Of a stretch of 64,000 nucleotides of DNA, positions 11,481-62,950 are shown piece by piece. The stretch is from Cetorhinus maximus (Eukaryota), in assembly GCF_964194155.1 (NCBI RefSeq), contig NC_135902.1, positions 43,338,001-43,402,000 of the forward strand, read 5' to 3'. The position numbers and the translations under genes were made by a program. How positions within the stretch are numbered: position 1 is the first letter of the stretch; every line of letters begins with the position of its first letter. The notes beneath the pieces were generated by a model. The model saw nothing but the letters and a program-made list of their open reading frames with translations, did no database searches and was not told where the DNA came from.

Positions 11481-11504
11481 GGCTGCATTGCCATCATCTC
11501 TCTG

Positions 11505-14102: not shown

Positions 14103-14217
14103 TAAGTTTTTGATGTTCTGGTCAAATTGTGATATCCATGGTCCTCCGTGAAAGTGAATGGACTACATAAAGTTATAATGTGATTTCAGCTGTGTTCAAA
14201 TGTACAACTGAGGTTTT

Positions 14218-14588: not shown

Positions 14589-15449
14589 AGAAGATGTAAA
14601 CTCCTGAGCATGTCCTTTAGTATAGGTAAAGTTATTGTAATAGAACTTGTTTAGGGCTGGAACCAAACTACTTAGCATGCCTTCCAGAGATAGATCAATG
14701 CATCCTTAAACAAAGTCCACCCTTAAGCAAAGAGAGGTGAATTCTCTGACAGATGTGAGTATCCATATTTCATCAGGCATTTGCTTAAGTATTATGCCTG
14801 TCTGTAGCTCAACTGCCAAAGGTCACGTGATTTTCAGCTGCCATTGTGATGGTCTGTTTGTATCCAGTTTTATAATTTAAAAAATAGTCTGAAATTCGGA
14901 ATAGGACATTCCAGTACTGGACACAACACTATTACAACAATTTGCAGTGACACGCTGTTACTTTTAAAGGGACAAGTAAACTGAAGAGCAGTATCTGAAC
15001 GAGGCCAAGTTCAGATATTCAGAAAATGAACTTCAATTGTACCAATTCAGGATTCGAAATTCCATTCATTGGTTATATTTATTGAGTTCCTCCATAGCCT
15101 GCTCATATACTTTCTTTTGCTTAGGAACAGGTGTAGAGCATTAAGGCCCTCTAATCTAGTCTATTCCGCAAACTGACCCAGTGATAATTCTCCTGTGATA
15201 ATTATAGCTGTTTGATACAGTTTGAATGGAGATCTAACTAAATGTAGTGGCTTGTTACAGGATCCAAGCATATCCATAGGCTCGGAGCGAAATGAGACTT
15301 GTGAAGTATTTTAGGTGGTAGATTGGAGAAGGTTCAGTGCAGGTAGCAATGAAAAGTATAAAACTGAAAACAGCATTGCGTCTACTGGCTGTGCCTGAAC
15401 TATGCAGATTGGACAGTGTCTTCCCTCTGGAAATTTCTATCAGTAATTG

Positions 15450-32064: not shown

Positions 32065-35000
32065 CCTTCCTTTCTAGTGATGTCATGCTGCTATCCCTTA
32101 AAGGCATATTACAACATCCCCCTTTCCTTTTAAAGATACTTTGCCCCCCCACCCCACTCTTCTAATGGAGTATAACTATTTACAATACATGTTCATGTTT
32201 AGTTACCATTACATAAGTGTAAAGGACTGGTGAATCTATGAGGCTGTAAAACAAAGAGGTAATCTACTGATACACCCAGATCTTGTAATAGTAACCTTGT
32301 CGAGAGGCATCTGTGATTGCTCACACTGATTTGTTGGATTGTCATTCTTGGATGTTGTTCCTGGTTTCATTTTGGATCTTGCCCTTGATGAAATAGGACC
32401 ACACAGTGGTGGAGGGATTGGAATGGATCCGATTTGTCCCCAGTTATGCCTCATTATTGCGCCTCTGTATGTAATGACTTCATAGGATCTTGATCCTGAA
32501 CAAATCCTTGTCACCTCAGATGGTTGTGACATACCTTCTGTGGGATCCTGGATGTGAATTTGTCCCAGCTGTAAACTTGGCAATTCTGCATCTTTATCAT
32601 GCACATTGGCCACCTTCTCTTGTAGTTTTGAAAGTTGCTCTCTAGTTTCTTAGAGAGTAGAATGGGTAAGAGTAGGTCAATTGGTACACACTGGTCTGCC
32701 AAACATGAGCTCTGCCAGTGATGGAATAGTTGCACTTAAAGTTGTTGGTCTCAGGTGTAACATTGCAATGTGTAGGTCTTGCTTGGTCTTTCTACATTTG
32801 GGAATTAGGGATTTCACCATGCAAAGTATTCGTTCAGCTAGACCATTAGATCTAGGAGAAGGAGTAGTGTGATCACTATTCCATTTCTCACACATATCCT
32901 GAAATGGCTGACCAATAAATTGTGCACCGTTATCCATAATGATCTCTCTAGGCACACCAAATAAACTGAAAATAGCACTTAGTGTGGTAATAGTTATGCT
33001 TGATTATTGTGCAATTTTTGAATAATGGGGTACTTTGTAGAGTAGTCGATGATGACGATGAAGTCAATGCCATGGACATGAAAGAGGTCGGATGCGATTT
33101 TGGACCAAGGATGGGTAGGAACCTTTTGCGGAATCAATGGTTCTTTGTGCTGACTTGGCATATGTCCTTGACATGCATCACACTTCTTGATGACAATTTC
33201 AATATCATTATTCAAGCACGGCCAATAGACTACCTATTTGCAAGTCTTCTCATCTGATCTATGCCCATATGTGAGTGAGTGATGTTTTCCATGAGCTTGA
33301 TGGTGTGACACCTGTGTTAGCTGCTCTCCATCTCATCATGCACATCATCATCATACTCTGGTTTGTCAATCACCTCATGTAAATGCTTCTGGTAGGGTAC
33401 CATGCGGTCATTCTTATTGCTGAAAGGTATCCGTTGTGCAGGGTTTATTTGGATCAGTGCACAGATCTTTGAAGCTGCATCAAACTTTGCTCTAGTGCAC
33501 TGCCTCTACCAATGGCCCTTTCTGCCACATGCTTTGCAGAATTGCTGGAAAACTGGACATTTCTCTGGTGCATGCAGAAGGCCACACCTTCCACTTGTCT
33601 TGCTAGGTTAGAGTGTTCGAGTGAATACGTCAACAATTGGGGTTCTGCCTAGGAGCTGTAATGTTCCTCAGTCTGAGGATCGCTTCATATTTGCATCTAT
33701 CCCTGAGTAGCTCTTTGATGCTATACATGTTGAGCTTGTCTAGCAGATCTTTCCGGAATGCTTCCATGGGATTGGATGTGATCACCAGCTCAACAATTCT
33801 GTCTGCTAGTTCTGCATTCAAAAAGTCACAGTACGTACCTTTTCTCTGTTTCTGCTGACAAAGTGGTCTACGAAGCCTGTTGTTGAAATGACATGAACTC
33901 TGGTCACCGAATATGGAAGTTTTAACCTGATTCTGAGCCAATGTAGTCCATATTTTTTAGGGATTCTTTAGCTCTTCTGCTGTTAATCCTGATGTGTTCA
34001 GTCTGTGTAGACCTTCATTGCCAATTACTAGTGTCATGACAGTGGATCACAACCCAAATTACTTTTGGGCATATGGAATGTTTTGAGGAAGTCGTGTTTT
34101 TTTTATAAAGAACATAGAAGCAAAAGCTGGCTGAGACTGTAAAGTAACCACTTTCTGGAAAATTCCTATGTGGATTATACTTGACTGACTAGTCCAGAGA
34201 GACCCTGGAATGTCACACCTAAAAAGGTGTCAAAGCCCACTTCAGTCAGAGGCACTTGAAAGGGAGAGATGCAATGCAAAAGACTGAACTTTAATCTCCT
34301 GTGGCTGTAGAGACAATGGAGACCGATTACCATCTCAGCAGAAACCACCTCCTGTTCAGTTATGTCTCAGAATGTAGACATGATCTGAGTTGAAAGGAAA
34401 ACAGATTCTGGGCAAAAGACATGTTTGTTTTTTCCCTTCCAGGAATACACAAGAAAAGGGGTTAAAAAGCCAGCCGCAAACCTGATCCATGTGTTCTAAT
34501 TCTGGTGTTCTAGTGTGTGCTGTGAAGGTCACAGTAGAAGAAAAGTAACTAGACATCCCTGCAACTTGCAGGTAAAAGTCTCTATATATATCTCTCTCTC
34601 TCACTCTCTGGCTGGAGGCAAGTCAGCAAAGCCACAGCTGAAAAGGAAACAGGACAACTCCTTCAGCTAACCTGCAGAACCAAGTGTCTCTGAACCAACT
34701 GCTCAACTGTCAAAGTTAACTCTACTGGAATCACCCAACTTAATGGCCACAACATTTCACCATCTACTCCTCATAGACAAACCAAGACTGATTCGTATAC
34801 CATTTTTTAAACTTTTATTTTTGGACTCACCTTTTCAAATCTGATCTGTGTGTGTGTGGGTGTTGAGTTTTTATTATTTTTTTCCTCGAGTTTTAGTAAC
34901 TGATAAACTTACTCTTTCTTTGACTCAAGAAAGCCTGGTTAAATTGGCTCCTTCTAAAACATAAATACATTTGGACTGGAGAAAGGTATCCATGAGGGAA

Positions 35001-35972
35001 GGGATCCTTTTTAAATTAACCTTGTTGTGACCAACCAAGGGGGTTGAATACGGAAGGGGGGGGGGGCAGCTCATTCCTCCTCGCCCGGGAGCATAACTAA
35101 ATTGGGGCCCCGTTCAAGAAGTTAACATTTTGGGGTATCTCGTCCAGGATCTTAGCAAATTGGAGGATCTTGCCCAGGGACCGGTTGTAACACTAGGCAA
35201 ATTTTTATGTCTGTCTTGTCTGGTTCAGATATACCGGAATCAAGAAACCATAGCTCTCTACGTTGTTTAAACATTCTGAATTCAGATAGTAGGTCAGCTG
35301 CATCCCAATTCAAACTGGGGAATTTCATGGACATTTTGACAATATCCCTTTGACCTTCCTTCTCTTATTATACCTGGGATGAGTGTCGCTGTGCCTGTTT
35401 TCACGCACTTTTCCGAAGCTCCATTCATTATAATCACAACCCTCTCTGGCCCAATTTTTGGGATCATTTTTTTGTTCGTTTGTTTGACTGTCCCTCGCTC
35501 GCTATCGATCCAGCCCACACCCTGGTCACTCACTTTTCCCAATTTAAGATAACCCAGTGCTGATCCTCTCAGTGCACTGTCCTGCTCACCACAAGGGATC
35601 AATCTGCTTACCAGCTCTTTCCTTGAGCACTATTCCGGCACTGTGTCTTCAAAGCTTTTCTGACCAGTCACCACGCTACAATTTCAACACTCTCCAATGC
35701 TGCAGCTTCATTGCAGTCTGACCAAAATGTCGAGAGTCGTCTCATGCCATGTAGCATGATCTTAATGGCTCATAAGGGATTGTACAAACACAATATGGGC
35801 TCATTTATTAATTCTAGACACGTGAACATATGTACATGGATAGAAAGCTTAAGGGCATCAGAGCTTCAGGGCTGTGTGTCTGTTCCAGGCTGAAGTGAAA
35901 TAGGCTGGATCACACAACATACTTCACTTAAAGCGATAGCGTGCTACTATCTCTTAAAGGCATATTACAACA
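32065..35972 (-). mobile_element. Internally deleted Gypsy element (5' LTR 35750-35972, gag with CCHC, integrase, PPT, truncated 3' LTR)
   Basis: Both LTRs start TGTTGTAATATGCCTTTAAG on the minus strand (35972 and 32116). PPT AAAAGGAAAGGGGGA precedes the 3' LTR. gag FPSLNWDAADL, zinc knuckle CKACGRKGHW, IN HSHMG...CDAC...PWSKIASDLF...IIMDNGAQF...SNGLAER. No PR/RT/RH motifs found between gag and IN. Confidence 0.88.
34032..35192 (+). mobile_element. Solo LTR (1161 bp) inserted in gag of the Gypsy element
   Basis: TGTCATGAC...GTTGTAACA termini, perfect 4-bp TSD CTAG (34028-34031, 35193-35196). The gag frame continues across it (KICL|VIGNEGLHRL). Confidence 0.9.
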
Positions 35973-43325: not shown

Positions 43326-44289
43326 ATCTAAAGATAAAGAGACTGTTGGAATTCCAATTACTACTTAGATGTTGTCAATGATCTGGTCTGTTAAACATGT
43401 ATTTTTCTAATATTGAGAAATTTATTGTGCATGTACATAGGGCATGCTGAACTCAGTGCCCAGCTTCCTGCTATTTGCTTGTGATATCCAACATTCTGCA
43501 TCAATAACATAAGTTACCCCGAAGCAAAGGAATGCAACCAGTAACCAATAACTCAATATTCAACTCGGACAGTAAGTAACCACTTCTGAAATAAATAATA
43601 AGGTCTAGAAACTAATGCCCATTTTGGAATTTTCTGATTGATCCTTTGATGAATTTAAGGAAGGCACCAAGGTCCTTGTAGCTTCTGCCACTGTCACAGC
43701 ATGAAATGTGAAAACAAATGGGGTCCTGGATAACAGGGAAAGCACTTATCTAACTGTAGAGTAGGAGTTTAGCACAACAAATTAAATAAATATTTTCCCA
43801 CTAGGCAGGTAATTGTGTTATTAATCCATTCTGCTATAATCTCGGCTGAGAATAGCAAACTAGCTGCCATTTGATGGGTTTCGAGTTTGCTTTTGGCATT
43901 TGCCATTCATTTTAAGTAGCTGGCTTGCTTTCAAATAGTCAAATTGGCTCAAATATGATTCCAAGAGCTTGTACCCATACATTTCAAAAGATAGAGGGAA
44001 TTTTTAATGCAATTAACTTGTAAAAAGAATTCCTTCAAGACAAACAATTATGCATAGAAGTGTAGATGTCTGTAGGCAATGTTTATGTATTTTCTTCTTC
44101 ACTGTAAAGAAAAATGAATATTTATTAAAGAATATCACTGACGGCAAAGATAGATAAGCACATGAAGGAGAAAGGACTGGATGGATAAGCAGATAGAGTT
44201 AGGTGAGGGGAGGCTCAGGTGGAGTATACATACAGGTATTGATCAGTAGGGCATGCGTCTGTGATGTAGATGCAATGAAGTATATTGTA

Positions 44290-44715
44290 ACACTCTTGTC
44301 TTTGAGTCAGAAGATTGCAGGTTCATGTCCAGAGATTTCAGCACAAAATTTAGACTGGCACTATAGGAGTAATGCACTGTTTGAGGCTTTGCCTTTCGGA
44401 TGAGACATTAAACCAAGGCCTTCTCTCTTAGGTGAAGTTTGAAGATCACATGGCACAGTTTTGAAGAGAAGCAGGGGAGTTATCCCCAATGTGTCAATAT
44501 TTATCCCTTAATCAACATGACAAAAACAGACTATCTGGTCATTATCACGTTCTCCAGTTTAACAACTAGCTGCTTGCTGTGTGAAGATTGGCTGCCATGA
44601 TCCCTACATTACAATAGCGACTACACTTCAAAAGTGCTGCATTGGCTGTAATATGCTTAGGGATGTCCTGGGGTTGTGCGAGGTTCTATGTAAATGCAAA
44701 TCTTTCTTTTTTTCT
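44290..44715 (+). mobile_element. Deu-domain tRNA-SINE, nearly full length
   Basis: Head (gagtcagaagattgcaggttcatgtcc), core and L2-type tail as in 2129-2545. Confidence 0.78.
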
Positions 44716-46119
44716 TCCATGTTAATGTGCAGTGGGGTTAGTTTTCACCTTCATGAGCTGATTGGTAATCTAGGAGGTGTGGATCTTCCAAGCATTTGAG
44801 AAGCCCCTGATTTTCATTCTCTTGAAATCAATGCAAGCGAAGTTGGCTGGGTTCTATAATGAGTAGCCTTCTCCTCCACCAGATTAGCAGCCGGGCGACA
44901 AGGACAAATATTTACCTCATTTTACCCTGAAGGCTTACTTAAAATATTGGAACCTTTATTATTTGAGGCATGACTGAAGGGATTGAAATGCTTCAATAAT
45001 TGGAACCAACAACATGCATGTGAGATCTTCTGCCTATACAGTAGTACTAATGCGTTTCTCAATTCTGGAAAAGTACATGTTTAATGGACCAGAACATTGA
45101 AAACAACATCCAAGAAGTAACTGGAACAATCAGCGCCTCCAACAGTTCCCTTCAGCAAACTTTAATGCAAAATATACAAGGAGGAATTGTTCCCAATTTC
45201 ATATTTGTTATAAAAATAGAGTGGCCATGGCAGGAAAGGTAAAATGTGCTCAACACTACAGCAGTAACTCCCCAGACTGTAGGTTTATCCAGTGAGTAGC
45301 TGAACAGTTCAAGAAGGACTGATCTACATTCTATGTTGTTAGATGATCATCCAGATGGTGGTAGGGGCATTTGAATTGGTTTCAGAGCACTTGGGCTAGG
45401 AAGGAACAAATTGGCCAGGATTTCCGCTCTGATCACTATCCAATGAAGTGCGTGTGGCCAGAAAAGGGAAAATATACAGCAATGACTTCCCTAAAAAAAT
45501 GAGTACGAGGCCTAAGCTGTGAAAGTAATCTTTGAGAAATGGCTAGACAGGTTCCAGATGTCTTTTGTGTGACACATTCTTGGACTAATGAGAAAGCAAC
45601 AACTCCAAGACAAAGATGTTCAATAAGCCCAGTGCAGTCTTTTAAAAAATAAATAACTTGACTAAGGTGGTGGGGACACATCTGAAAGGATATATGCTAA
45701 TAAGAAGTGTAATATAGAAACTCAATTTCAAAGCATGGATTTCAAGAGGGGACTAGCGATTATCTTGATGAGAGATATTGACTTGGGCATAGACTACCAG
45801 ACCAGGGACAAGTTGCGCATTAAAACTGTAGTGAACAACTGCCTCTGATACATTGACCTTAACAAATACATTATTAGAGTAAAGAAAGCTCTTCATTAAC
45901 ATACAATGCATACACATTTTTTGCGTACTGAATGCCTTTGAAATGCAGTGATGTGCTATGTCAGTGAATATGACAGCCATTTAGCACAGTATGATCCCAC
46001 AAACAGGAATGAACGAATGACCTGTTAGTCTTTTCTTGGGGGGTGACGGTTGAAGTAAGACCAGACTTTTCATAGTAACAGTGTAACTGCTTACCCAAAG
46101 TAGATGTTTAAGGAAGAGT

Positions 46120-46490
46120 AAAGTCATGCAGCTATCATATTAGGGTATTATTAAACATAAATAAAGTGCCAGTAATGAAGCCATCACGGACAAAGTCACA
46201 CTACCAAAGAAGAGGTGCTAGTAAAATCTGAGACCAGAAGAACTCTGCTGACCAGGATCAGGAAGCGACAGTTGGAATTTCTTGGGCACATAATAAGAAA
46301 TCATGATTTAGAAAGTCTGATGCTGATGTGAAAGATCGATGGTAAAAGAGATCGAGGTAGGCAAAGAACGATCTTTCTAAAGACCCTGACAAACTAGATG
46401 AATGTACCACCAACAAAGATGATCCACACCTCCAGAGCAAGATTAACATGGAGTCTGTGGCTGCCAACACCCTTTTAGGGCATAGTATCT
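46120..46490 (+). mobile_element. RTE (BovB-like) LINE 3' fragment
   Basis: EEVL...RTLLTRIRKRQLEFLGHIIR...KIDGKRDRGRQR, a typical RTE ORF C-terminus. Confidence 0.75.
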
Positions 46491-47315
46491 GAAAAGAGAG
46501 AGAGAATGACAGTGCGTAGTACTTTATATACATAGTTCAAATTGATTATTAGTATTTGTTACTACACATTAATAAGTGAACTATTAATAATTGCTCCTTC
46601 AATGCATCTAGCAAGAATATGGTGATTCGGCTATAGATAATAACATTGAAAATGGTCAATAGTCACTATAATTTCTGTGAGTTCGCAGCCACAGATTAAA
46701 ATGAGCAATCTCCTATTGTTAAAGGTTGCGATTCATCCACAGTTTAATGTTAATGGCAACAGATGGTCAAATCATTCCTTTGGCTGACTAAGCCAAATTT
46801 GGGCCCAAATGGCCCAACTTCAAGCTGGCTGAACCTTTTAAACTGTACATCGGGGTAGATGTCAACAAGTCATCGCAAATATGATATATATTTAAAAGGA
46901 AGTGGCTGGTTTTTATCAAGAAACTGGAGTTTAAAGCAGGACATCTGGCCGAGGAAATTACTTTCTGTCACACGTGGGTTATTAGGAAATAGGAACAAAA
47001 TGAAGCCTATTACCTTCTGCAGGCTATTGAGGTTACAACAATAGGCAATTTCCTCTTTAACTAATAACTGTTATTGTTACCTTCCTATGATTTGGTATTA
47101 ACAATATGCATTCAAACTGCAAAGGATTAGCAGAAAATGGATAGCATGGGATTTTGGAAGGTAACTAGATTGTTTGTCAAAGTTATTTGCCATTGTCCGT
47201 AGTGAGTCCATATTTTAGCTAGTTAAAACATCTGGTTTGTTTGTTTTAAAATGTCCTTTCCTCAGTACTGCTGAAGCACAGGAGTGAAACATTGAGAACT
47301 AAACTCCATTCCTGT

Positions 47316-47675
47316 GTAAAAGCAAAATACTGTGGATGCTGGAAATCTGAAGCAAAAACATAAAATGCTGGAAAAATTCAACGGGTCTAACAGCACCTGT
47401 GGAGAGAGCAACAGAGTTAACGTTTTGAGTACGTATGACCCTTCTTTAGCGTAATACATAACAATATATCTTAAAAGTAATCTATCCGTACCAATGATGT
47501 CAAGCAAACATACAATGGCAACTGCATTGCTCTGCCCTGACTCCTCTCTTCAATCTGAAATAAAAACAGAAAATACAGGAAATACTCAGCCGGCCTGGCA
47601 GCATCTGTGAAGAGAGAAACAAAGTTAGTGTTAGACAGAGTTAATGTTTCAGGTCAATGACCTTTTGTCAGAACT
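47316..47675 (-). mobile_element. Two Penelope-like terminal fragments (47316-47450, 47555-47675) with degenerate hammerhead cores
   Basis: aaagcaaaatactgtggatgctggaaatctga motif. Minus-strand CTGACAA-AAGGTCA-T-TGACCT-GAAA at 47671-47647. Confidence 0.65.
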
Positions 47676-49683: not shown

Positions 49684-50854
49684 CTTACTTGGTCAAGAAA
49701 TGGGTGTCATTATTTTACCAAATAAAGATGGATATGTAATAAAGCTATGTGATGCCAACATAATTTCAAGATAATAAAAGTTGGGAAAAAGAGTAAGTAA
49801 AATAACGGAGGGGCAATGTTCAACTACCCTCATCTGTTTCTTGCCTGAAAGACAGATGATCAGTAGACACAAGGCTTTCTTTTCTTTAATTCCTAGTTAG
49901 GAGAATCCGGGTCTAAGGTGAGAAAAACAAGCTATGCAAAGCTCCAAAGGCCCCAATACACAAGATTGGGGGTCAAGAAAATAAATTATCCCTGTTGTTC
50001 ATGTCATTATTTCCAAACCAAACCTTATGCACCACAAATACTAAAATGCATGTTTCCCTTGCCAGGATAGGGTATGATGAACTTTCATTGTTAGGTCATA
50101 GGACAGAAATTAAGACAATGACACTGCCTACAGAAAAACTCAAGCATATAGAATAACAATTTCAGAATTTTTACGGATTGAATTAAATTCTCTAAATATT
50201 AAGCAAAGCTTTATGTTAACACGGAATTGTTTCACCGGGTTGCATGACGTTGTGGAAGTAAAATTACAATCCCATCGATATGAAAAAGCAGTCAATTTCG
50301 GCTTTTACTGTGGGTATGTACATAATAACATTTTACTACTTGATCACAGGACAGAACAAATTCAGTCACGTTGCTTTTAGAAGCTTGTTTATTTCCCAGT
50401 GAACTGAGTCACAAATGTGTTGGAATATTCCAAATTCTTTGCATACTTATTCTGTTTTGAATGTCTTCTTTATTCATGATTTTTGCTATCGGTTTAAAAA
50501 AATCAAATCCTTTAATAGACTTTTAATATTCAGACCACTTTCTCTACACTTTTACAAAGTCCCATGATAAGGACTCGCACCTAAAGTTTGAAATTTGCAA
50601 ACATATACTCCAGAAGCCTCTTGCATGAAGCCTGGCATACATAGTCACACGCACACACACACCAATTCCTTTCAGGGTTCTTGTGACTATTGTTAACTTT
50701 CTCCTTCAATGTTGCCAATTATCAATCTTCACTATCACCGCTTAATCATCTTTTAAATCCACTTTCAAAGGGCCTCAGTTTAACAATTCATCCAAAAGAT
50801 ACACACCCAATTATAATGCACTCCCTAGGTACTAGCCTTGATCTTTGCACTTAA

Positions 50855-50998
50855 TTCTTTCGAGTTATCAACAGTCACAGATTGCAACTCTTTTGAGTAC
50901 AATCACAGTTCTTGATTTCCAGGAGTGGGCCATGAACCCACAACCTTCTGATTCAAAGGCAAGGGTGCTATGGACTGAGCCACAGCTGACACCTCAAT
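50855..50998 (-). mobile_element. Short tRNA-headed SINE with ACTCGAAAGAGT-type tail (copy A)
   Basis: 14-bp TSD ATCTTTGC(A/G)CTTAA (50841-50854, 50999-51012). Near-identical to the 57270, 57412, 58323 and 62615 copies. Sits inside an older Deu-SINE head. Confidence 0.88.
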
Positions 50999-51425
50999 AT
51001 CTTTGCGCTTAAGTAGAACTTGAATCCACAACCTTCTAATAGAGAAGCAAGAGTGCTTCCAACTGAGCCACTGCAAACATGACAGTAATTACAACACCTC
51101 TGACACTTCAAACCTGTGAAGTTTCACACCCTCAATAGAAAAGAATTTTAAGAAAAGCCAAATGTATGCTGACATCAATACGTTTGCATGGTGTTCATGT
51201 TAATTGGTTTGCTATTTCGTACTGTGCTCCTGAACATGTGATATTTTACAGCAACTGCATTAGAATATGTTGGAAAATATTAGTAATGACTACCATGGAT
51301 TTATGCTCTGATTTGATGACAGTGATTGACAGTCCATAAATTATTCTGAAACAAAATGCAATTGCTTAGTGTGGAGCAAATTATTGCAAACTGCCATCTT
51401 AATACTCCTTGACATCATCATCATG

Positions 51426-52523
51426 TGTTAGGACCGGCCGCTGGGTGAGGTTTCTCCAATTTGTTGAGATCCCGGTTGAGGTACCCCAAATTGTTTTGCT
51501 CCAGGGTGAGGAGGGATGAATTGGCTCCCTTTCGTTATTCAACCCCTTGGTTGGTCACAACAAGGTTAATTTAAAAAGGATCCCTTCCCTCGTAGATACG
51601 TTTTCCCAGTCCAAATGTATTTATGTTTCAAAAGGAGCCAATTTAACCAGGCTTTCTTGAGTCAAAGAAAGAGTGAGATTTTTAGTTATTAAGCACAAGG
51701 AAAAATAATTTACAAAAAGCAACACACATACACACAGATTAGAAATGAGAAATTGAGTCTAAAAACAAAAGTTTAAAAAATATACGAATCAGTCCTTAGG
51801 CTTGACGGTGGGGAGTAGATGGTGAAACGTTGTAGCTGTTAAGTTGGGGTGATTCCAGTAGCGCTGACTTTGGCAGTTGAGCAGTTGATTTGGAGATTCT
51901 TGGTTCTGCAGGTTAGCTGAAAGGAGTTGTCCTGTTTCCTTTTTGACTGTGACTTTGCTGACTTGTGACTTGCTTTGAGCAATCAGAGAGAGGACCTACT
52001 TACCTCCAAGTGCAGGGATTCCCAGTTGGTGTTCTTCAGCTGTGACCTTCACAGCATAACACATATGAACAGAATACCAGACTAAGACAGAGAATGAGGG
52101 TTGCAGTTGGCTTTTTTAAACCCCTTTCTTTGTGTATTCCTGGAAGGGAAAAATAAACATGCCTTTCGCCCAGAAATGTTTTCTTTTCAACTCAGTTCAT
52201 GTTCACAGTCTGGGATATAACTCAACAGGAGGTGGTTTCAGCTGAGATGGTAATCATTTTCCATTATCTCCACAACCACAGGAGATTACAGTTCAGTTTG
52301 CGTTGTATTTTTTTTCTTTGAAGTGCCTCTGTGACCATGCCATACCTTTCAGATGTGACATTCTGTTCTTTCTAAACTAGTTGGCCAAGCAATCCACATA
52401 GAAATTTTCCAGCAAGTGGGTTCCTTACAGTCTCAGCCAACTTTTGCTTTAAAAAAAAAATGTCTCACTTTAAAGTTCAATATGTCCATAAGTAATTCGG
52501 GGATAGGACTCGTGGTCATGACA
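51426..52523 (-). mobile_element. Solo LTR, same family as 34032-35192
   Basis: Reverse-complement homology along its full length, TG...CA ends, 4-bp TSD CATG/CACG. Confidence 0.9.
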
Positions 52524-52874
52524 CACGTGTGTTCTTCCCAAAGGCAGGCTCTTAGCTCATTGTCAGCTGATGCTTCATCCTGAGCTGTTTTCTTGGCAGT
52601 TTTTTTGTCAGCCATCACCTTCCACTCTCATGGCCAGGGTGAGGAGACAGGTCTCAAGTCTACCTCAGCTGGAACAGGAATCAAACCCATGTTGTTGGTG
52701 TTATTCCGAAGCAGACGCTAACCAACTGAGCTAACTAGCCCCACATAGCTCTTTGAGATAACTAACTAATATTGAAGCTTTTCAAGATGCCTTGAGGAGA
52801 TGGTTAGTCAACTTGAATAGCAACAGTTTTTACAACTGACCAATCTGCTAAATGATTTCAGAAACCATTGAGAG

Positions 52875-53115
52875 TCAATCTTATGGTGTTGGACAGGGGT
52901 TGCCCAGATCAGGTAGCAGTGGCAACTCCCTTTCCCTGAAGAACATTAGTCATTTATTTAAATGTTATGGCAACCCAGCATATTTTCATGGTCACTTTTC
53001 CCTACTGCCAGCCCACAAGTTAATAGATTTATTGAATTCAGCTTTACAACATGTCATAGTGGGTTTCGAACTTATGACCTCTGTTGCTGCTAGTCTGGTA
53101 TCATAACAACTACAT
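52875..53115 (-). mobile_element. Old tRNA-headed element related to the 5' end of CR1 family A
   Basis: Minus strand aagttcgaaacccact...gaccatgaaa...ctaatgttcttcagggaaagg resembles 40490-40300. Confidence 0.5.
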
Positions 53116-54198
53116 TCCCTTGCCCTCAGGGACCATCTTTGGTGGCAAAATTCTATCTGGTTTGCCATGACATCTTTCTTTGGCTTGGAAGGGTTGGCTG
53201 GGTTACAACAAATTCAGCACTTGTGTGCAAGGCTGGTAATGCGATATTCAATCATTCGAGCCTTCAGTGCTGAAAGTTACAGTACAAATAGATTCCACAT
53301 ATCACATACAAGCTCATTAAACTACAAAACAAATGATCAAACAATTCACTTTATTCTTGTTCTAGAATTGCTTTCAACTATTTTCATTATTCCGTCTTTC
53401 AACACAGGACGTCAACTAGAAAGAGCTTTTCTCAGCCAATTATTTCTTAATTGCTTTTTTTTGAGTCCACCCCCTATATTCATTAAGATAAGATAAACAA
53501 ACAATAAGCTGATCCTAATCAGACCAGAGTGTATCATTGGGCTCCCTCAAATCCAGGCGTCTCCTATCTGCCGTTTCCCTCCCTTTGGCACCGACTTGGC
53601 ACCATTTCTTGCTCCCAAGCAAATGCTGCCAACAATCACTTTTCAATATTGCTACTCCATTCCAGGACTGCTATCAGCCTTTCTAAGGCCACTGCAGCCT
53701 ATATCATCCCTCCCACTCTCACCGGACACCTCTACCCATCTGCAGTAAACAAAAATGAGGACTTTTGAGATTCTTAAACAGTTTAATAAACATGACGGAT
53801 ATATTGCGTACTTCTGACTAAAACATATATAACCTGAGAATCAATCGCAGAAGAATGTACTCCCCTATCTAAATCACTGGCATTTGCCTATAATGTTTCC
53901 TGAGGAAAAAAATTAAGAGCAATTATTAAAACTGAAGGTAGATTTCAGTCTATGTGCTCCATTTGACTCTGTTCTCAAATGTAGTTAACACAGAATTACA
54001 TAGTATTGCAGTACAGAATCTGACCATTTATTCTAACTGGCCTATGCCAGTGTTTATGTTCCAAATGAGCTTTGGGCCACCTTACTTCAGCTCAGCCTAT
54101 CAAGATATCCTCCTATTCCGTTATTGGTCATGTACTTAATTAGCTTCCCCATAAATGCATCATTGCTATTCAGCTCAACCACTCTTTCTAGTAAGAAG

Positions 54199-54653
54199 TG
54201 TTATGACCGGTCCCCCTTCGAGGTTCCCCCAATTTGTTACGATCCCGGACGAGGTGCCCCGAATTGTTATGCTCCCAGGTGAGGAGGGATGAACTGGCTC
54301 CCTTTCTTTATTCAAACCCCTCAGTCGGTCACAACAAGGTTGATTTGAAAAAGGTCCCTTCCCTCGTCCAAAAGGAGCCAATTTAACCAGGCTGTCTCTA
54401 GTCAAAGGAAGAGCAGGTTTATTAGTTACTAAACACGAGAAAAAAAATAATAAAAACATATCACACGTACACACAGATTAGAAATGAGAAGTGAGTCCAG
54501 GCATAAAGGCTAAAAAAAAATACGAATCAGTCCTTTGGCTTATGCATGAGAAGTAGATGGGGAAACATTGCAGCTGTTAAGTTGGGGTTATTCCAGTAGC
54601 GCTGACTTTGGCAGTTGAGCAGTTGGTTTGGAGATCCTTGGTTCTGCAGGTTA
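54199..54653 (-). mobile_element. 3' portion of a third LTR of the 34032 family
   Basis: Homologous to 51426-51915. Contains the clearest PBS-like units. Confidence 0.85.
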
Positions 54654-54654
54654 G

Positions 54655-55241
54655 AGAGTGAGATGGCAGTGAATGTGTGATGGACTTGTGAGTGTGAGAA
54701 TTTAGGGTGATGAGATTGTTGCCTTACTCTGGTGGCACGGATGAGATCTTCCATCCGTTTTCTGCAATGGACAGCCTATCTCTTGTGTGCAGCATTGGCA
54801 CTGACCACCTCTGCCACCACCTCCCAAGTTGGAGTGGTGAGATTGATGAGCCTCTTGCAGCTAGAGGAGGGGTAGAGGACATCTTGGTGGGCCTCCATGG
54901 CATCCAGAAGTTGTCCCAGGAATCCCTCACTGAATCGGAGGGTCTGCACTCATCTTGGCTTTTGGGGCCATGTCTTCACAGTTGCCCTCCTGGGCTGCAA
55001 GCATTGAGAAGTGTGCACGTGGCTCCAGTATAAATGTGGTGCCCTGTGTGAGGAAGCAGCGAGGTAACAGTGTGGCGGGCAATTCAGAGGCTTCCTGCAG
55101 TCAGATGGCGTGTTTCCTGTGGCTGCATAATTAATGAGGCGGAAATGGGATGATACAGCAGGAAAACCCACCATTGTGGGTAAAACTAGTTTTTTCCCCA
55201 CCCGCTACCGCACTTTGTGCAAATCTGGGACGATTCTGTCC
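54655..55241 (-). mobile_element. Harbinger transposon end with decayed Myb/SANT-like ORF exon
   Basis: RFSEGFLGQLLDAMEAHQDVLYP...WEVVAEVVSANAAHKR*AVHCRKRMEDLIRATR followed by a GTAAGG donor. TIR-like GGACAGAATCGTCCC at 55241. Confidence 0.75.
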
Positions 55242-55249
55242 TTTATCTT

Positions 55250-57225
55250 AATTTCTATCTTCTTTTTTAATCAGGGAGCTCTGGATTTGTTTGCCCTATC
55301 TTTCCCTTTTGAGGGAAGATACCTTGACTGTGGCCGAGCCATTTCTTCTTTGAAGGTAGCCCATTGTTCAGCTACAGTTTTTCCACTAACCTTTGGTTCC
55401 AGTCTATCCAGCCCAGCTCTGTTCTTACCCCACCGAAGTCAGTTCTCCCCCAGTTAATTATTCTTACTCTGGATTGCCCATTGTCCTTTTCTACCGTCAT
55501 CCTAAACCTTATGATACAATGATCACTGTCTCCTAAATGCTCCCCCACTGATACTTGCTCTACTTGGTCCACCTTATTTCCAAGAACCAGTGCCTCCTTT
55601 CTTCTTGGGCTGGTCACATACTGCTGTAGAAAATTCTCCTGAACACAAGCTAGGAACTCTTGCCCCTCTCTGCCCTTTACACTACCACTATCCCAGTCTA
55701 TATTCAGGTAATTAAAGTCCCCCATTATAACTACCCTATAATGTTTGCATCTCTCTGTAATTTCACTGCAGATTTGTTCCTCTACATCCTGCCCCCTCTT
55801 AATCACATCTTGGTTTAATGTTTGTAAGTTTATTTTCAATTTTGTCTTTTGTTTTTGCAGTTTCCTTTTAAGGGGCTGCATTTTACTTTGTCCCTTGATT
55901 TGTTAATTTAATTTAACTGGTTTGGCTCAAAAGAGTTACATCCTTCCCACTAACTGGTGGTCTATAGACTACACTGAGCAATGTAATTGCACCCTTTTTG
56001 TTCCTTGGCTCTAGCCAAATTGATTCTGTCCTTGAACCCTCTGGGACATCCTCTTTTCCCTGCACTGCATTGCCCTCCTTAACCAATACCGCTACCCCTC
56101 CTCCTTTTCTTCTTGCTCTATTTTTCCTGAACACCTTGTACCCAGAAATATTTAACACCCAGTCCTGCCCTTCCTTGGTCCCGATCTCTGTTATCACCAC
56201 AACATCATAATTCCGCATGGCAATCTGTGCCTATAACTCCCCAATCTTATTTACTATACTCCGTGCATTCACATACATGTTATATAATCCTGATTTAGAC
56301 TTCATGACTTTCTCCCTTACTCCGACTCCACCTTTAAGTTACTATTCTCTATACTAGTGCTATCTGTCTCTCCCAGTATTTTGTGCACCCTGGTATTCCT
56401 CTCTAATATTCTCTCCTGGCTCCCACACCCCTGCAGAGTTAGTTTAAAGCACCCCAACAGCTCTAGCAAAACACCCCACAAGGAACTCAGTCCTGGCTCT
56501 GTTCAGGTGCAACCTGTTTGGCTTGTACAGGTGCCATCTGCCCCAGAGCCAGTCCCAGCGTCCCAGGGATCTAAAACCCTCCCTCCTGCACCATCTTTCC
56601 AGCTATGCATTCATCTGCCTTTTCCTCCTATTTCGGTACTCACTTGTACGTGGCACTGGGAGTAATCCAGAGATTGAGGCCCTGCTTGCTAATTTTCTTC
56701 CTAGCTCCCTAAATTCTGTCAGCAGGACCACATCCCCTTTCCTACCTAATTCATTGGTACCAATGTGGATGATGACCTCTGGCTGTTCACCCTCCCCCAG
56801 AAGAATGTCCTGCAGTCACTCGATGACATCCTTGACCCTGGCACCAGGGAGGCAACATATCATCCTGGGGTCACATCTACAGCTGCAGAAAAGCCCATTA
56901 GTTCCCCTAACTAACAAATCCCCTATCGTTATTGCTCTTCCTTTCTTCTTCATCCTCTCCTGTACAGCTGAGCTGCTCATGGTACCACAAACTTGGCTCT
57001 GTCTGCACTTCTCTGAGGAGCCAATGCCCTTACCTGTATCCAAAACAGAAAACCGATTAGGGTGCAGGACCCCAGGGGACTCTTGCACTACCTGCCTGGT
57101 TCTTTTGGACTGCCTGGCAGGCACCTATTCCCTTTCTGCCTCCGTGCTCCTGACCTGCGGTGTGACCACCTCTCTGAGCATGCTATCCATGTAGCTCTCA
57201 GCCTCGTGGATGAGCCACAGTGACT
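55250..57225 (-). mobile_element. Vertebrate-type CR1 5' part (ORF1 esterase plus ORF2 endonuclease), truncated
   Basis: ORF1 NRFSVLDT, IGDLLVRG, CCLPGARVKDV. ORF2 YDVVVITE, GYKVFRKNR..RKGGGVAVLV, VVYRPP, IMGDFNY.NIDW, HLGDSDH. Confidence 0.9.
55791..55936 (+). mobile_element. 146-bp 5'-truncated Tx1-like LINE 3' end inserted in the CR1 endonuclease
   Basis: 8-bp TSD TACATCCT (55783-55790, 55937-55944). Ends ...ggctcaaaagagt. Homologous to the units of the 58463-59597 array. Confidence 0.72.
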
Positions 57226-57269
57226 CCATCTACATGATTTTAATCCTGTGCACCATCACCTCACACATG

Positions 57270-57553
57270 GTGTCAGCTGTGGCTCAGTTCATAGCACCCT
57301 CGCCTTTGAATCAGAAGGTTGTGGGTTCATGTCCCACTCCTGGAAACCAAGAACCGTGATTGTACTCAAAAGAGTTGCAATCTGTGACTGTTGATAACAA
57401 AAGAATTTTTGAGGTGTCGGCTGTGGCTCAGTCCATAGCACCCTCGCCTTTGAATCAGAAGGTTGTGGGTTCATGTCCCACTCCTGGAAAACCAAGAACT
57501 GTGATTGTACTCGACAGAGTTGCAATCTGTGACTGTTGATAACTCGAAAGAGG
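57270..57553 (+). mobile_element. Dimer of the short tRNA-headed SINE (copies B and C) under a single TSD
   Basis: 15-bp TSD ATCACCTCACAC(A/G)TG (57255-57269, 57554-57568). Two monomers joined by aagaatttttgag. Confidence 0.88.
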
Positions 57554-58322
57554 ATCACCTCACACGTGTGAGATTTTGACTCCTCCACACTTGTCACCAT
57601 GGTGCAACATGTTGCTAGGCACATCACCCAGCGACTGCAACATTATTATCATGTTCTGAAAACAGTGTTCTTTTGAATGCAGGGCCACAAAGATCTGGCT
57701 CCACTGCCAGTGCAGCTGCTGAAAGAGGCACTCCCATCCTCCGAGAATGGTCCACCTCTTCCTGTTCCTGCTCTCCAATGCTTAGTGATTCAACCTCAAT
57801 ACTCCCCTCATGCTCTTTTAGCTACATCCCCCCCAGTGGATCTTGCTGGGCTGCTGCTGCCAGGGTTCTGCATTTGAGCAGAATGCCAGACATTTGTTTC
57901 CTGCAGGTGCTACAGAGGGTGTGACCTCTGATTTCTTCATGTTCCTGTGAAGATATAAAGATGAATAAACAACAAGGCAAGTTTATATTTCTGTTCATGT
58001 GCACTCACGAGCTTGCATCACTGCTATCCTCTGCAGGGGAAGCTCCTGGGCATTGAGATTTTCAGAAATATGTAGGTCTGGGATGGAAAGGGGGAGAGAA
58101 AGAGAGAACCAAAAAAAACCCTGAGTTGGGACATGCTCACCTATCTCACTGTCTCCTGCTACCTCTGTCAATCAGTTTGTTGGAGCTCATTAGCCATTCT
58201 TCAAATGGGGAGATTACTTGGGTTGTAGGAGGTCCTCCCCCAGTACCTGTTGTTAATTCAATGTTAATTATATTGTTAAGATACACAGATGAAGGGTATT
58301 GTTTAATTGAATACTGAGAGCA

Positions 58323-58462
58323 TGTCAGCTGTGGCTCAGACCATAGCACCCTCGCCTTTGAATCAGAGGGTTGTGGGTTCATGTCCCACTCCTGGAAAAC
58401 CAAGAACTGTGATTGTACTCGAAAGAGTTGCAATCTGTGACTGTTGATAACTCGAAAGAATT
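58323..58462 (+). mobile_element. Short tRNA-headed SINE copy D, fused to the Tx1-tail array
   Basis: Near-identical to the other copies. Its end ctcgaaagaatt runs directly into tataaagagagactc, the array junction sequence. Confidence 0.85.
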
Positions 58463-59597
58463 TATAAAGAGAGACTCACTGCAGGGGCTGGAGTGCTTCA
58501 TCATAATTTGATTTGATAAGTTTCCTTTAAAATTTTGTCTTTTGTTACATTGCCCCTTAAGGGCTACTACTCAAATTTACTTTGTTAATTTGGCCATTTG
58601 TTTAGTGTTGCTCGAAAGAATATAAAGAGAGACTCACTGCAGGAGCTGAAGTACTTCATTAGCCCCCAAAACAACATTTTAATTTAATTCTGCAATGTTG
58701 TTTTAAATTTTCTCCTTTGTTGCAGTTCCACTTGAAGGGGTTATCAATTTGTTTAAATTAGTTAATTTGATTAATTGTTTTATTTTTTAGTACTCAAAAG
58801 AGTATAAAGAGAGATTCACTACAGGGGCTGGAGTGATTCATTAGTCCCCAAAACAATATCTTAACTTAAAAGCAAAATACTGTGGATGCTGGAAATCCAA
58901 AACAAAAACAAAAATAAAACCAAAACAAAAACAAAAATAAAAATAAAAAGTTTTTCCAGGTATTTCTGTTTTAGTTTTTAATATCTTAACTTAGTTAGAT
59001 AAGGCTCCTTTAAAGTTTTGGGTTTTCACTACTGTGACCCTTGAAGGAGTGTCAACTTGTTTAAGTGGGTTTATTTAATTTGCTAATTATTTTAATTTAC
59101 TGAGACACACCACAGGGGCTGGGGTGCTACATCAGCCTCCAAAACACTTTAATTCAGTTAGATGAGGTTCCTTTAAAATTCTGGGTTTTCATTTCAGTGC
59201 CAAGAAAAATTATAAGGAGTGATTTTCTGAGACCAGTGGGCACCGTGGGGGCTAGAGTGCATTAGCAGCCCCCTACACAACATTTTACTTTAATTATGTA
59301 AGTTTTCTTTAAAGTTTTGACCCTTTGTTATAGTGCCCCTTTAAGGGGCAATCAGTTTGGTTAATTGCCATATTTGATTAATCAGTCTATTTTATTTTAT
59401 GGGTTACTCAAAGAGTATAAAGAGAGACTCGTTGCAGGGGCTGGAGTGTTTCATCAGCCCCCAAAACAGCAGTTTAATTTAATTACATAAGATTTCTTTA
59501 AAGTTTTGTCTTTGTTATAGTGCCCCTTTAAGGAGTTATCAATTTGTTTAATCAGTTAATTAATCTATTTTATTTTCTTGGTGCACTCAAAAACATT
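58463..59597 (+). repeat. Head-to-tail array of ~6 Tx1-like LINE 3' ends (about 115-190 bp each)
   Basis: Recurring caggggctggagtg...cagcccc, AT-rich UTR, gcccc(t)ttaagggg and ctc(g/a)aaagagt. Unit 5 translates F*DQWAPWGLECISSPLHNILL*, which I recall as the C-terminus of Tx1-clade ORF2. Confidence 0.68.
58869..58979. mobile_element. Penelope-like end with inverted segment inserted in array unit 3
   Basis: 14-bp TSD AATATCTTAACTTA (58855-58868, 58980-58993). aaagcaaaatactgtggatgctggaaatc motif, then an inverted tttttccagg...ttttgtt-like segment. Confidence 0.7.
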
Positions 59598-60074
59598 ATA
59601 AAGAAGAAGTGCTGGGGCACTGGTTTATTAGTTAGAAAGCAGACATATATAATGCTGTATTCTGTTAATAAACCCATTATCAAGAGAAGTATTAGAGTGT
59701 CATTTCATACTTCAACAGTTGGCTTGGGATTGTTCAATCTGTGACCTGATTCTGTGAAATGTTTCTTTCTGGAGATGAATATTACACTTTCCTGAATAGA
59801 AGCAGCCTCAATGGCACTCCAGCATTTGCCCATCTATTTCTCTTTGCATTAAGAATGATTAGCAGTGAATGTGAGGGCGGTGCTAAGTTGCTGCTCTTTC
59901 ATGCATTATGTCCCTGCATTGATCTATGTGCAGTCTCTAAGAGGTCAGGGAGTATTTCCCATGTGGACATCATTTTACAGATAGCTACATAGCCAAGGAA
60001 AAAGCAATGAATTACAGAGAACACTTGGGAGTAGACACATGGCAAATATATTGTGTTACATGTGTGCAAAGATT

Positions 60075-60260
60075 CATACTTATCCTCCTTCCTGGAGAGG
60101 ACGTGAATCATTTTCTTGCACTGTATCCATTTCTTTGGTATGGCACTGCTGCTGCTGAAGACCACTGCTGCCTCTTGCCATGGCCTGTGCACCACTGCCA
60201 TTAGAACATCTTTCCATTGCAGGGAAATAGTGCACTTCTCCCTTGTTCCTCTTCCCAAGG
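60075..60260 (-). mobile_element. Decayed Harbinger Myb/SANT-like ORF fragment
   Basis: KDVL...WQEAAVVFSSSSAIPKKWIQCKKMIHVLSR resembles the W..VA..V....RTW.QCRK...DL motif seen at 54730-54940 and 62315-62530. Confidence 0.55.
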
Positions 60261-60999
60261 TATTGCTCAATGACCTTGTCGTCAAAGCAGGTTGTTCTTG
60301 GGTAACCTTGTCTCTTATGAGTGTTTTTCCAACGTCTTCCTCTTCTGGTACTCCCGATTGTGAAATAATCTGCAGGCACAACTAACTTCACGGAAGCACT
60401 GCACAATTTACTTGGCAGTTCATGAGCTTGAAAAACGTCCATTCCATCTCAGAATTCATTGTTTCTTCCACAGCCTCTTTCAGGGCCCCAAGACTCACCT
60501 GCTCTTTAAGCCTGCATCAGGCCTTTTATTGGTAGCAGTTCCATTCCACTTCACTGCATGTTGTATCTGCACCAGCAGAAGAACTCAGTGCCTGCCCATG
60601 TCAAAACTAGAAGGTGGACGGCTTTTATGTCAGGGCAAGTGTTTTATTTTTGTGTTGCCAATGTTTTGTGCTCATTACCAGATAATTAGCCCATGCAGTT
60701 GGAAAATTGGTTCATAGAAATCCTGCACTGTGACAGAAGTGCAAAGTAAACAGAATTGGATGTAATCTTGTAAAATGGAGTCTGAGTTGCAGTGTCATTG
60801 TCTGGTAGCTCCACATCAGGAATTTTGTGGCCAGTAAGTTACAGGTCCATTTTGTCTTGTTGAAATATTCTGACATTTGCTGTAGTCATTTTTATGGCAC
60901 TGGTTTAAAATATTCTGATGCTCGTTCTTTACGTTTCATGACATTGGCCTGGATTTAATATTGAAATTTAGATTTCCTTAGGTTATGCACTCTTCTAAT

Positions 61000-62950
61000 A
61001 AACCTACACATGCCAGTAAAACTGCCATTCCCCTGGCAGGACCTTAGCAACCCATTGGAGGACTCAGTGTTGGATTGCTGTGAATGCCTCACCACTAAGA
61101 CCTGCAGCCATGGTGGCAGCAGACTGAGCCTGAATCACAACAAGCGTGGATCTCATGATCTCAGCCTGAGCTTTCACTCCAGCACTCAGAGATTGGGTGG
61201 CTTTCGACTGTGCTGCTATGGAAGCTGAGGCATCGACCACCAGACGCTCCCATCATGACTGGGCCCTCAAGTGCTGCTATGGAGCTGGCCACCACTTCCA
61301 TGCTGGGAAGGATGGGCTGTAGGTCTGCACCTGTGCCCAGTGCCATATCACAGCCAGAATCCTCTGCTCCTTGACAGTGACGACAAGCTGCCTGGCAGGC
61401 CTGCCAATGCACCATGCACCCCAGTGTGTATAACCAACAGCATTCTCCAGCGGGCTGCCCCAGTGCAGTACTCATCTGACTTCCCAGTGGCAGAAGTTAT
61501 CTGCAACCTTCCCCTCCAGTGAGCTGGAATATGCTTTATCCTTTCCCTCCCCCACCCCCCCTCCCCCACACTGGCCCGGCTGCAGATCCTAACACAATGC
61601 CACCCTCTCTGGTTCACACAGCGCCAGTATCTGAACTGGCAGCTGGTAGAGTCAGGACAAGTGAAGATGCTTCTTCATTAGTGCTTTGCTGTTGCTCTCA
61701 CCTTTCCTCCTGTGGCTGCTGTGGCTGCATAGGCAGGCGGCAGTCCTTGGAAATCAGAAAACCACAAGCAGAGGGTTGGGCTGTTGGAAGGAGGAAGAAA
61801 GTAGAATGAAGTAGGTCCATGGTCACACCACCTGCAACTTGCACTTCATGCCAGACAGCAATTTGAGGGAGTGGTGAGATTCTGGATGCGGCAAAAGGCA
61901 GGAACATACCGTAATCCTCAATTTTCCAGATAAAGCCAGATGTAACAGGTTCTGTCACAATAGGTCCCACGATGCAGAACACCATCTCCTCTGTAGGCCT
62001 TGCCTGCCCCCCTGGTAGTTCTGCTTTGCTCCATTCTATTGCCTGTGACCTTGTCTGGCAAGACAGAGGGAAGAATGTCAGTGATTATGTAGCACTGTAT
62101 TTGGGTGATGTGCCTACCATCGCTGAATAGCTAGAGGTAAGTGGAGGCAATGGGAGGTGAGTGAGGCTGGCATCTTGGAAAGTATTTGAGGGTGAACTGG
62201 AGAATCTGAATGTTAGGCATGAGCCTTAACTACTTAGGAACTGCTAATGGGTGAATGATCAGGGATTGGTGTTGTGGTGGTCAGGTGATGTCATGTGAAG
62301 ATGCATTCCCTTACCTTAACTAGCCCTGTGAGGTCAATGAACTTTTTCCAGCATTGCTGCCATGCCCTTGGGGTCAGAGTCCAGGAATTGACCTCCTTGT
62401 CCACCTGCTGTCATTCTCTTCCAGGGGCATTCCCTGAGGGCTCCATGAAAATCTGGCCTCTCTCCTACTGTAGACCTCCATCACTAAGGCCTCCAGCGCT
62501 GCATCTGTGAACCTGGAAGCATCCTCTCTTCCCCGGTGCTCCATTTGTTTTGTAGCTAGTTGCAGTACTTTTAAGAGGGACAGACTGCCCTTAAGAGGTG
62601 GAGGCTAGCTGGAAACTCTTTCGAATTATCAACAGTCACAGATTGCAACTCTTTTGAGTACAATCACAGTTCTTGGTTTCCAGGAGTGGGACATGAACCC
62701 ACAACCCTCTGATTCAAAGGCGAGGGTGCTATGAACTGAGCCACAGCTGACACCTCCTAGCTGGAACATGTACTAGCTTCACACACTGTTAGGCCCCTTG
62801 TTGAGCGTTCAGCCACCCAACAACATGGGTCATGCTGAGCTGAATGCTGCGATCATGGAAATGAGGCGGCATCACAATGGTTTGCACGCTGACCTCAATG
62901 GGATTTGACACGGGCAGATCACAAACTGCGGCCCCCGCAACCAAAATTGA
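61000..62950 (-). mobile_element. Degenerate Harbinger element carrying a spliced Myb/SANT-like gene remnant
   Basis: Exon ~62530-62315 SRFTDAALEALVMEV...QQVDKEVNSWTLTPRAWQQCWKKFIDLTGLVK then GTAAGG. Next exon ~62058-61909 ends IEDY|GTATGT. Boundaries approximate. Confidence 0.68.
62615..62756 (-). mobile_element. Short tRNA-headed SINE copy E
   Basis: 10-bp TSD CTAGCTGGAA (62605-62614, 62757-62766). Ends ...gataattcgaaagagt. Confidence 0.9.

Follow-up and report, generated by a model that had tools for sequence, protein, structure and literature searches.

Recycling of heads and swapping of tails are well known in short interspersed elements (SINEs), and the L1-group enzymes of vertebrates are known mainly for relaxed recognition of poly(A). 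Here we describe a family of ~140-bp SINEs in a 64,000-nucleotide stretch of the Cetorhinus maximus genome (contig NC_135902.1, positions 43,338,001 to 43,402,000 of the forward strand; hereafter the window, numbered from its first letter), the members of which lack poly(A) and end in the same short hairpin motif as a long interspersed element (LINE) inserted nearby. Shark SINEs have been described with partners of the L2 or CR1 type (PMC3747384), and SacSINE1 and SacSINE1-CM of sharks and chimaera combine a tRNA head with a Deu body and an L2 tail (PMC5499810). The present SINE resembles SacSINE1 in having a tRNA-type head, but it has neither the body nor the L2 tail. It measures 140 bp vs. 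~430 bp for an older element of the window that we take to be of the SacSINE1 type, has target-site duplications (TSDs) of 10-15 bp, and belongs to one lineage. The SINEU elements of crocodilians carry U1/U2 heads and were tied to Tx1-Mar by target preference, no LINE with the 3′ terminus of SINEU-1 having been found in that study (PMC4494074). SINEU is like the SINE described here in that mobilization by the Tx1 clade is thought to occur, TSDs of ~10 bp are occasionally seen, and tandem copies exist for which template switching was invoked (PMC4494074). It is unlike it in that here the link to the LINE is a terminal hairpin, the head is of tRNA type, no target preference was seen, and no TSD separates the units of dimers. 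Stringent SINE-LINE pairs of the L1 clade make up three of 58 pairs in one compilation, occur in plants and a green alga, and in monocots share ~50 bases (PMC3472496). ZmSINE2/3, paired with LINE1-1_ZM, and the green-algal pair resemble the present case in that SINE and LINE, there of the L1 clade, have a 3′-terminal hairpin in common. ZmSINE2/3 differ from it in being plant elements with ~50 shared bases, whereas the present element is from an animal, shares ~11 bases that are duplicated inside the SINE, and ends in T rather than A. Finally, RTE-tailed SINEs (Au-like, Sauria, and hagfish SINE1-1_EBu) have TSDs of 10-17 bp that often begin with T, and tail swapping gives rise to young families among them (PMC6007223, PMC7245038), but the RTE-type tail or microsatellite end is absent here.

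Copy 3 of the SINE was used as a blastn query against the window and retrieved four further monomers at 95-97% identity, together with three weak matches confined to the head. The monomers and their TSDs are as follows:
50855-50995, minus strand: SINE copy 1, full length, with 3 extra bases at the 5′ junction
50999-51012 and 50841-50854: TSD of copy 1, 14 bp with 1 mismatch (CpG)
57269-57405, plus strand: SINE copy 2, first unit of a head-to-tail dimer, 5′ TSD at 57255-57269
57411-57552, plus strand: SINE copy 3, second unit of the dimer, 3′ TSD at 57554-57568
58323-58462, plus strand: SINE copy 4, 5′ end short by 4 bases, adjoining an older array
62615-62756, minus strand: SINE copy 5, full length, exact 10-bp TSD at 62757-62766 and 62605-62614
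An earlier note on this DNA, made from the letters alone, had claimed five near-identical monomers in both orientations within 12 kb, three insertions with unrelated TSDs of 10-15 bp, and no A-tail, and all of this was found. The monomers differ pairwise by 2.3-4.4% over the aligned core (11 variable columns) and represent four insertion events, three of which have TSDs (14, 15, and 10 bp). The dimer of copies 2 and 3 is enclosed by a single outer TSD of 15 bp (1 mismatch, at a CpG) with none between its units, and a search of the flanks of copy 4 found no TSD. Among random pairs of flanks, a TSD-like match of at least 10 bp occurred in 3 of 5,000 and one of at least 12 bp in 0 of 5,000. The monomers have neither poly(A) nor terminal inverted repeats; their 3′ end carries a short run of T instead.

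Dispersal of the family was assessed in four of 24 read runs from three organisms (A, the window's species; B and C, relatives), which were compared over 55650-59750 at 85% likeness: X1 and X21 from A, X5 from B, and X9 from C. X1 is probably the source sample of the window and hence not independent, while X21 consists of raw capture reads from another sample of A. In X21, SINE bins had depths of 600-2,100 vs. 0-1.4 in five unique bins. The summed SINE depth (~4,900) over the unique depth (0.55) gives ~9,000 copies, and an assumed genome of 3-6 Gb gives 8,500-17,000, figures to be read as an order of magnitude since very few reads make up the unique depth and capture reduces depth away from its targets. 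The contig depth of X1 gives 81,000, which is not valid as a copy number. Both ends of the element are sharp: 1,704 X21 reads leave at 57269 into unrelated flanks (agreement 0.37), and at the 3′ end 1,649 leave at 58463 (agreement 0.33) and 676 at 58459, both 3′-end variants being common. A dispersed retroposon family, as opposed to a local duplication, had been proposed earlier, with copy number, TSD lengths, and 3′-end precision as the measures by which to judge it; the values obtained (order 10^4 copies, 10-15 bp, and sharp ends) bear the proposal out. A local segmental or tandem duplication, a DNA transposon, or a satellite might be suspected from four events within 12 kb, from the frequency of head-to-tail joints, and from the neighboring array, which did amplify locally. 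However, the flanks are unrelated, the TSDs vary, both orientations occur, terminal inverted repeats are lacking, and thousands of reads leave both ends into unrelated DNA, which rules out local duplication of the monomers and makes this whole group of explanations extremely improbable.

Depth at tail position 58396 relative to unique depth was ~24,700 in A, 22 in B, and 35 in C; per unique depth, the SINE tail is thus ~700-1,100 times scarcer in B and C than in A, and the neighboring LINE is about equally deep in all three. The orthologous flank diverges by 3.1% in B and by 4.2% in C, and contigs of both cease matching at 57554 with 56 letters left over. Fifty-six letters is the length of 57199-57254 across an empty site, that is, 30 bases into a LINE that ends at 57228 (31-letter words), so these contigs appear compatible with an empty site at the dimer, as judged from the letter count and not from a read-out of the junction. 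Matching to the contig of C also breaks off at 58324, on the 5′ border of copy 4, leaving 76 letters. Tail depth, orthologous flanks, and the fit to an empty site in B and C together lead to the conclusion that the SINE family expanded after A split from B and C. Recent activity, another of the earlier claims, holds in this sense, but since both mismatches in the SINE TSDs fall at CpG sites, the insertions are not brand new. The lineage-specific, dispersed 140-bp SINE is real and apparently without a description in the open literature: our search found neither this family nor a tRNA-type SINE with a tail shared with Tx1, although subscription journals, Repbase, Dfam, and SINEBase lay outside its coverage and may catalogue it, and no mention of Tx1 was found in PMC10468316, PMC10886601, or PMC5786205. 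As a separate observation, 347 X21 reads exit the SINE 3′ end at 58468 into one fixed flank (97% agreement), which could mean that one copy lies next to a captured locus or that some copies form a subfamily extended at the 3′ end.

The connection with a LINE comes from the 3′ terminus. The window contains the motif RCTCRAAAGAR 10 times vs. 0.42 expected, with seven occurrences in the monomers, one at the end of a LINE insert, and two in units of an array:
55795-55936, plus strand: LINE insert, a 142-bp 5′-truncated LINE 3′ end, with a 12-bp TSD at 55783-55794 and 55937-55948
58463-59597, plus strand: array in which a truncated LINE 3′ end is repeated as six decayed units, all starting at the same point
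The motif lies at the exact 3′ terminus of both the SINE and the TSD-flanked LINE insert, and the two kinds of element have TSDs in the same range and no poly(A). A shared LINE terminus had been proposed in the earlier note; it stands as beyond chance, within the limits of the ~11 bases discussed below. The insert had been given as 146 bp at 55791-55936 and is corrected here. It runs through the last codons, a stop, and an AT-rich untranslated region (UTR) with two hairpins to the terminal motif. Paralogs of its host sequence skip 154 bases, 12 of which fit on either side (114 X21 reads, and 7-8 contigs in each of the other runs), and the insertion splits the endonuclease (EN) domain of a minus-strand host LINE, both halves of which match endonuclease models. 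The insert family is abundant in A, B, and C, with ~540 copies in A by raw reads, so that a candidate partner was present in A. The ratio of insert depth to host LINE depth was 0.25 in A, 0.20 in B, and 0.17 in C, ratios that do not separate the ages of the elements.

The array proved to be less uniform than first described. Most of its units had been thought to end in the motif, which is intact in two of six, a decayed remnant in two, and cut short in two. Comparison of four units gave 68-79% likeness to one another and 61-65% to the insert. B and C carry the orthologous array at ~4% divergence, so it predates the SINE: a single truncated LINE end was amplified here first, and copy 4 came later. 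We also considered a composite element made of copy 4 and the array, and rejected it, as no TSD surrounds both and B and C have the array in orthologous position. A short piece of another repeat, with a 92% match to 47317-47364, interrupts unit 3 at ~58868-58980. The four SINE events lie together with the LINE insert and the array in 50841-62766, i.e., 12 kb of the 64-kb window. This clustering exceeds an even spread of ~10^4 copies and may reflect a local preference of the machinery.

The SINE itself consists of a head and a tail, shown here for copy 3 beside an older SINE of the window:
57411-57484, plus strand: tRNA-like head with a three-arm cloverleaf-like fold
57496-57552, plus strand: tail, two imperfect copies of one ~25-base unit
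2126-2560, plus strand: older long SINE, with only its head in common with the young family
The head is 75-79% identical over ~70 bases to that of the older ~430-bp SINE. The likeness ends at base 73 of the latter, with no shared body or tail, and further head matches lie at 44288-44330 and 51012-51074. The older element, presumably SacSINE1-like, has its tail in common with other old copies. Whole monomers fold better than shuffled sequences (z of -1.8 to -3.7 in four copies), and ARAGORN and Rfam returned no tRNA or other match for them. Compared with the promoter consensus, the A box is altered at its 3′ end in all five copies, so that the first hairpin grows to 7 bp. The Deu-like tRNA head that had been suggested is right as to kinship with the older SINE head, but the B box is degenerate, and the young SINE has neither a Deu body nor an L2-type tail. 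A SINEU-type head derived from U1/U2 small nuclear RNA (snRNA) was likewise not seen, the monomers giving no Rfam match at gathering score or at E up to 10. In the tail, the first unit lies in a predicted 10-bp hairpin with a stem that is invariant in all five copies, and the second forms a short terminal hairpin of 5 bp. Only copy 5 has this hairpin whole; the end reads GAAT in copies 1 and 4 and GAG in copy 3, and copy 2 has a 2-base deletion followed by five T. Two tail modules ending in a GNRA-tetraloop hairpin had been described. The loop fits GNRA in its G state only, and the modules are one unit duplicated internally and not two captured Tx1 tails. A hammerhead ribozyme, suggested by CUGUGA and GAAA in the tail, was rejected, the core not being canonical and Rfam giving no match. 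Copy 1 sits inside an old tRNA-head SINE (50700-51092, minus strand), directly behind the old head and in matching orientation, and its landing point is near the place where the tail of the young family diverges from the old SINE.

On balance, we consider it probable that the SINE is copied by the reverse transcriptase (RT) of the adjoining tail-less LINE, which is probably of the L1/Tx1 group, and that its head comes from an older tRNA-type SINE. In such a scheme, a source copy would be transcribed by RNA polymerase III up to the T run, giving an RNA that ends in the hairpin and 2-5 U; a LINE protein might then bind the C-RAAA-G hairpin or hairpins and nick the target; one or two A-U pairs could suffice for priming, the TSDs of two of three SINE events and of the LINE insert beginning with T; and a staggered second nick would leave TSDs of 10-15 bp. 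On reaching the 5′ end of one RNA, the enzyme could also jump to the 3′ end of another and so produce dimers with 0-6 variable bases between units. Dimers are indeed frequent. The joint from the 3′ end to the head (58463 to 57269) is carried by 210 X21 reads with 115 starts and by 33 X1 contigs, and makes up 7% of the listed reads leaving the end of copy 4 (210 of 2,882), a share that excludes reads matching the window's own dimer junction. At least eight different spacers occur at this joint in X1 and two more follow the end of copy 3; the spacers amount to 0-6 bases beyond the first two of the head. End-to-end template jumping has been cited for R2 (PMC2881922). One outer TSD with none between the units is consistent with this process, to which dimer subfamilies could add.

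The hairpin-bearing LINE ends themselves probably belong to the L1/Tx1 group. One coding remnant bears on this:
59225-59293, plus strand: array unit 5, with a frame carrying F-x-x-[QR]-W-x3-G and a stop 12-18 residues on, and one internal stop
The signature, with a stop 12-18 residues later, is present in 108 of 120 ORF2 proteins (the best 120 of 1,036 relatives of one element with an EN-RT-zf-RVT layout) and only once in the six frames of the window, in unit 5. Shuffles gave 0.1 per window and, for the sense strand of the array, 2 of 3,000. Shark Tx1 ORF2 proteins may end in a peptide like the one encoded by the array. Among eukaryotic LINEs recovered from contaminated genome bins, nine of the 12 scanned have the EN-RT-zf-RVT layout. 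Pfam models applied to 111 frames of the window detected EN and RT of the CR1/L2 type and Gypsy domains and no zf-RVT. It is conceivable that the hairpin-ended LINE is the partner but lies outside the Tx1/L1 group, as its array peptide has no significant homology to any ORF2 and no target preference is seen. We regard this as distinctly unlikely, given that the C-terminal signature and its spacing match L1/Tx1-type ORF2 ends, and that a UTR this short and AT-rich and a TSD of 12 bp are in keeping with the L1 group.

Several observations weigh against a partnership of the SINE with an L1/Tx1-type LINE, or against parts of the scheme outlined above. The SINE and LINE ends have only ~11 terminal bases in common, fewer than is usual for stringent pairs. 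The B box has T in place of a conserved A in all five copies (relative to the promoter consensus), and the short T run at the 3′ end is the only pointer to transcription by RNA polymerase III. B and C have the LINE family in about the abundance seen in A, so that its abundance is no evidence of activity during the SINE burst. The C-terminal signature was chosen after both sides had been seen, and the 120 proteins form one related group. No RT linked to the hairpin ends and no full-length LINE was recovered from the window. Searches with the array peptides gave nothing significant: a word-based search returned 0 of 61 candidates at E up to 10 among proteins of 77-2000 amino acids and none among those of 23-76, an Atlas search yielded no link to any ORF2, and HMMER against 1.84 billion representatives found no ORF2. 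The two HMMER hits obtained, a thioredoxin repeat and a low-complexity repeat, are due to chance. Likewise, the unit 5 peptide was not among the best hits of hidden Markov models of 113 and 111 ORF2 C-termini or of a position-specific scoring matrix. Many Tx1 families are biased in their targets, and target-specific ones lie against genes such as U1 or 5S (PMC4494074), while our four sites (three SINE and the LINE insert) have no common target sequence beyond a first T in three, namely at copies 1 and 5 and the LINE insert and not at the dimer. The Tx1 partner named in the earlier note retains one post hoc signature test and TSDs in the L1-clade range in its favor, and no significant homology hit; a SINE/Tx1-type partnership is likely, but not proven.

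The TSDs also bear on a different partner. TSDs of the L1 clade are given as 7-18 bp and those of the RTE clade as 7-15 bp (PMC6007223), so the 10-15 bp of the SINE fit the L1 clade and, to the detriment of our interpretation, RTE as well. A different LINE, for example of the RTE clade, might mobilize the SINE, with the motif shared through convergence on a stable tetraloop or as a relic. The lengths agree with this, and TSDs of RTE-related SINEs often begin with T (PMC6007223). Several features of the locus point the other way: both element types terminate precisely in the motif, blastn aligned the SINE tail neither with the LINE end at ~46400-46505 nor with any other LINE end in the window, the SINE lacks a microsatellite tail, and a T stretch ~10 bases before the TSD is clear in none of three SINE sites and only at the LINE insert, albeit in a small sample. 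An RTE-type partner is favored by the LINE end at ~46400-46505 itself, which has a purine-repeat terminus and which we take to be RTE; even so, we consider mobilization by such an enzyme unlikely. The decayed plus-strand LINE at 45000-46505 has a CCC-TTTTA-GGG end hairpin that resembles the upstream hairpin of the array units.

The state of the terminal hairpin raises a further question, as it is broken in three of five copies, contrary to what a strictly recognized end would lead one to expect. This suggests either that the functional hairpin may be the internal, invariant one, or that recognition is less strict than in stringent pairs. Taken further, an L1/Tx1-type enzyme might copy in a relaxed manner from a U-rich end, as with tail-less retrocopies, the hairpin being a passenger of one founding template switch. 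The mismatched or deleted terminal hairpins, the frequency of both end variants in the reads, and the T-initial TSDs, which suggest priming by pairing, agree with this. But the stem of the internal hairpin is invariant in all five copies, the motif has been kept in LINE ends that are only 61-79% alike, and the older SINE with the same head had no burst in A, its head depth requiring no excess over B and C; relaxed copying thus seems unlikely to us. We return, then, to the SINE as a template of the adjoining hairpin-ended LINE. In its strongest form, this would be the first vertebrate SINE to parasitize a Tx1-clade LINE by mimicking and doubling its tail-less tetraloop hairpin, with a stringent, poly(A)-independent enzyme, priming from U ends, template jumps that yield dimers at several percent of insertions, and a burst of 10^4 or more copies in one shark lineage. 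We offer this only tentatively, at somewhat less than an even chance. A vertebrate SINE linked to an L1/Tx1-type LINE through a shared poly(A)-free hairpin would be new, such pairs having hardly been described among vertebrates; the link itself is likely, but not proven. If the partnership is true, a 140-base hairpin template would be a minimal substrate for studying RNA choice by Tx1-type enzymes, poly(A)-free priming, and template jumping. Insertions that number in the thousands, are confined to one lineage, and are matched by empty sites in its relatives would, moreover, make clean markers for phylogeny where genomes evolve slowly.

Contig collections were scanned for related sequences. The SINE hairpin pattern had no match in metagenome or viral contigs, and the array coding motif had none in viral contigs; its sole metagenome match is a bacterial gene of 70% GC and due to chance. 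A narrow RT motif was absent from viral and genome contigs, and a looser one was absent from viral contigs and present in at least 130 stretches of genome contigs. The terminal motif occurs in L036, L037, L042, and L074, and is not at the element end in the two that were inspected. The sequences L002-L081, from one Arenicella bin and others, include long tandem arrays of intact eukaryotic LINE ORF2 genes, and such arrays in prokaryotic bins point to host contamination of the genome collection. Among these sequences, EN-RT-zf-RVT LINEs of one group, in L042 (2068-2465) and L039 (595-758), have a few terminal A and directly abut the 5′ end of a U1 snRNA gene matched by Rfam. A similar junction of LINE and U1 was seen by eye in L040, and the LINE in L067 (209-321) ends with poly(A) at a 5S rRNA gene. 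A literature search found no U1-targeting Tx1 family.

The window contains other repeats as well. Three related pieces resembling long terminal repeats lie at 51428-52515, 54200-54654, and 34283-35059, are 86-89% alike in parts, and include one that is inverted. Remnants of Gypsy-type RT, RNase H, and integrase were found at 15786-18317 and 32680-33003, and a 28-bp minisatellite of ~16 or more copies occupies 11426-12068.

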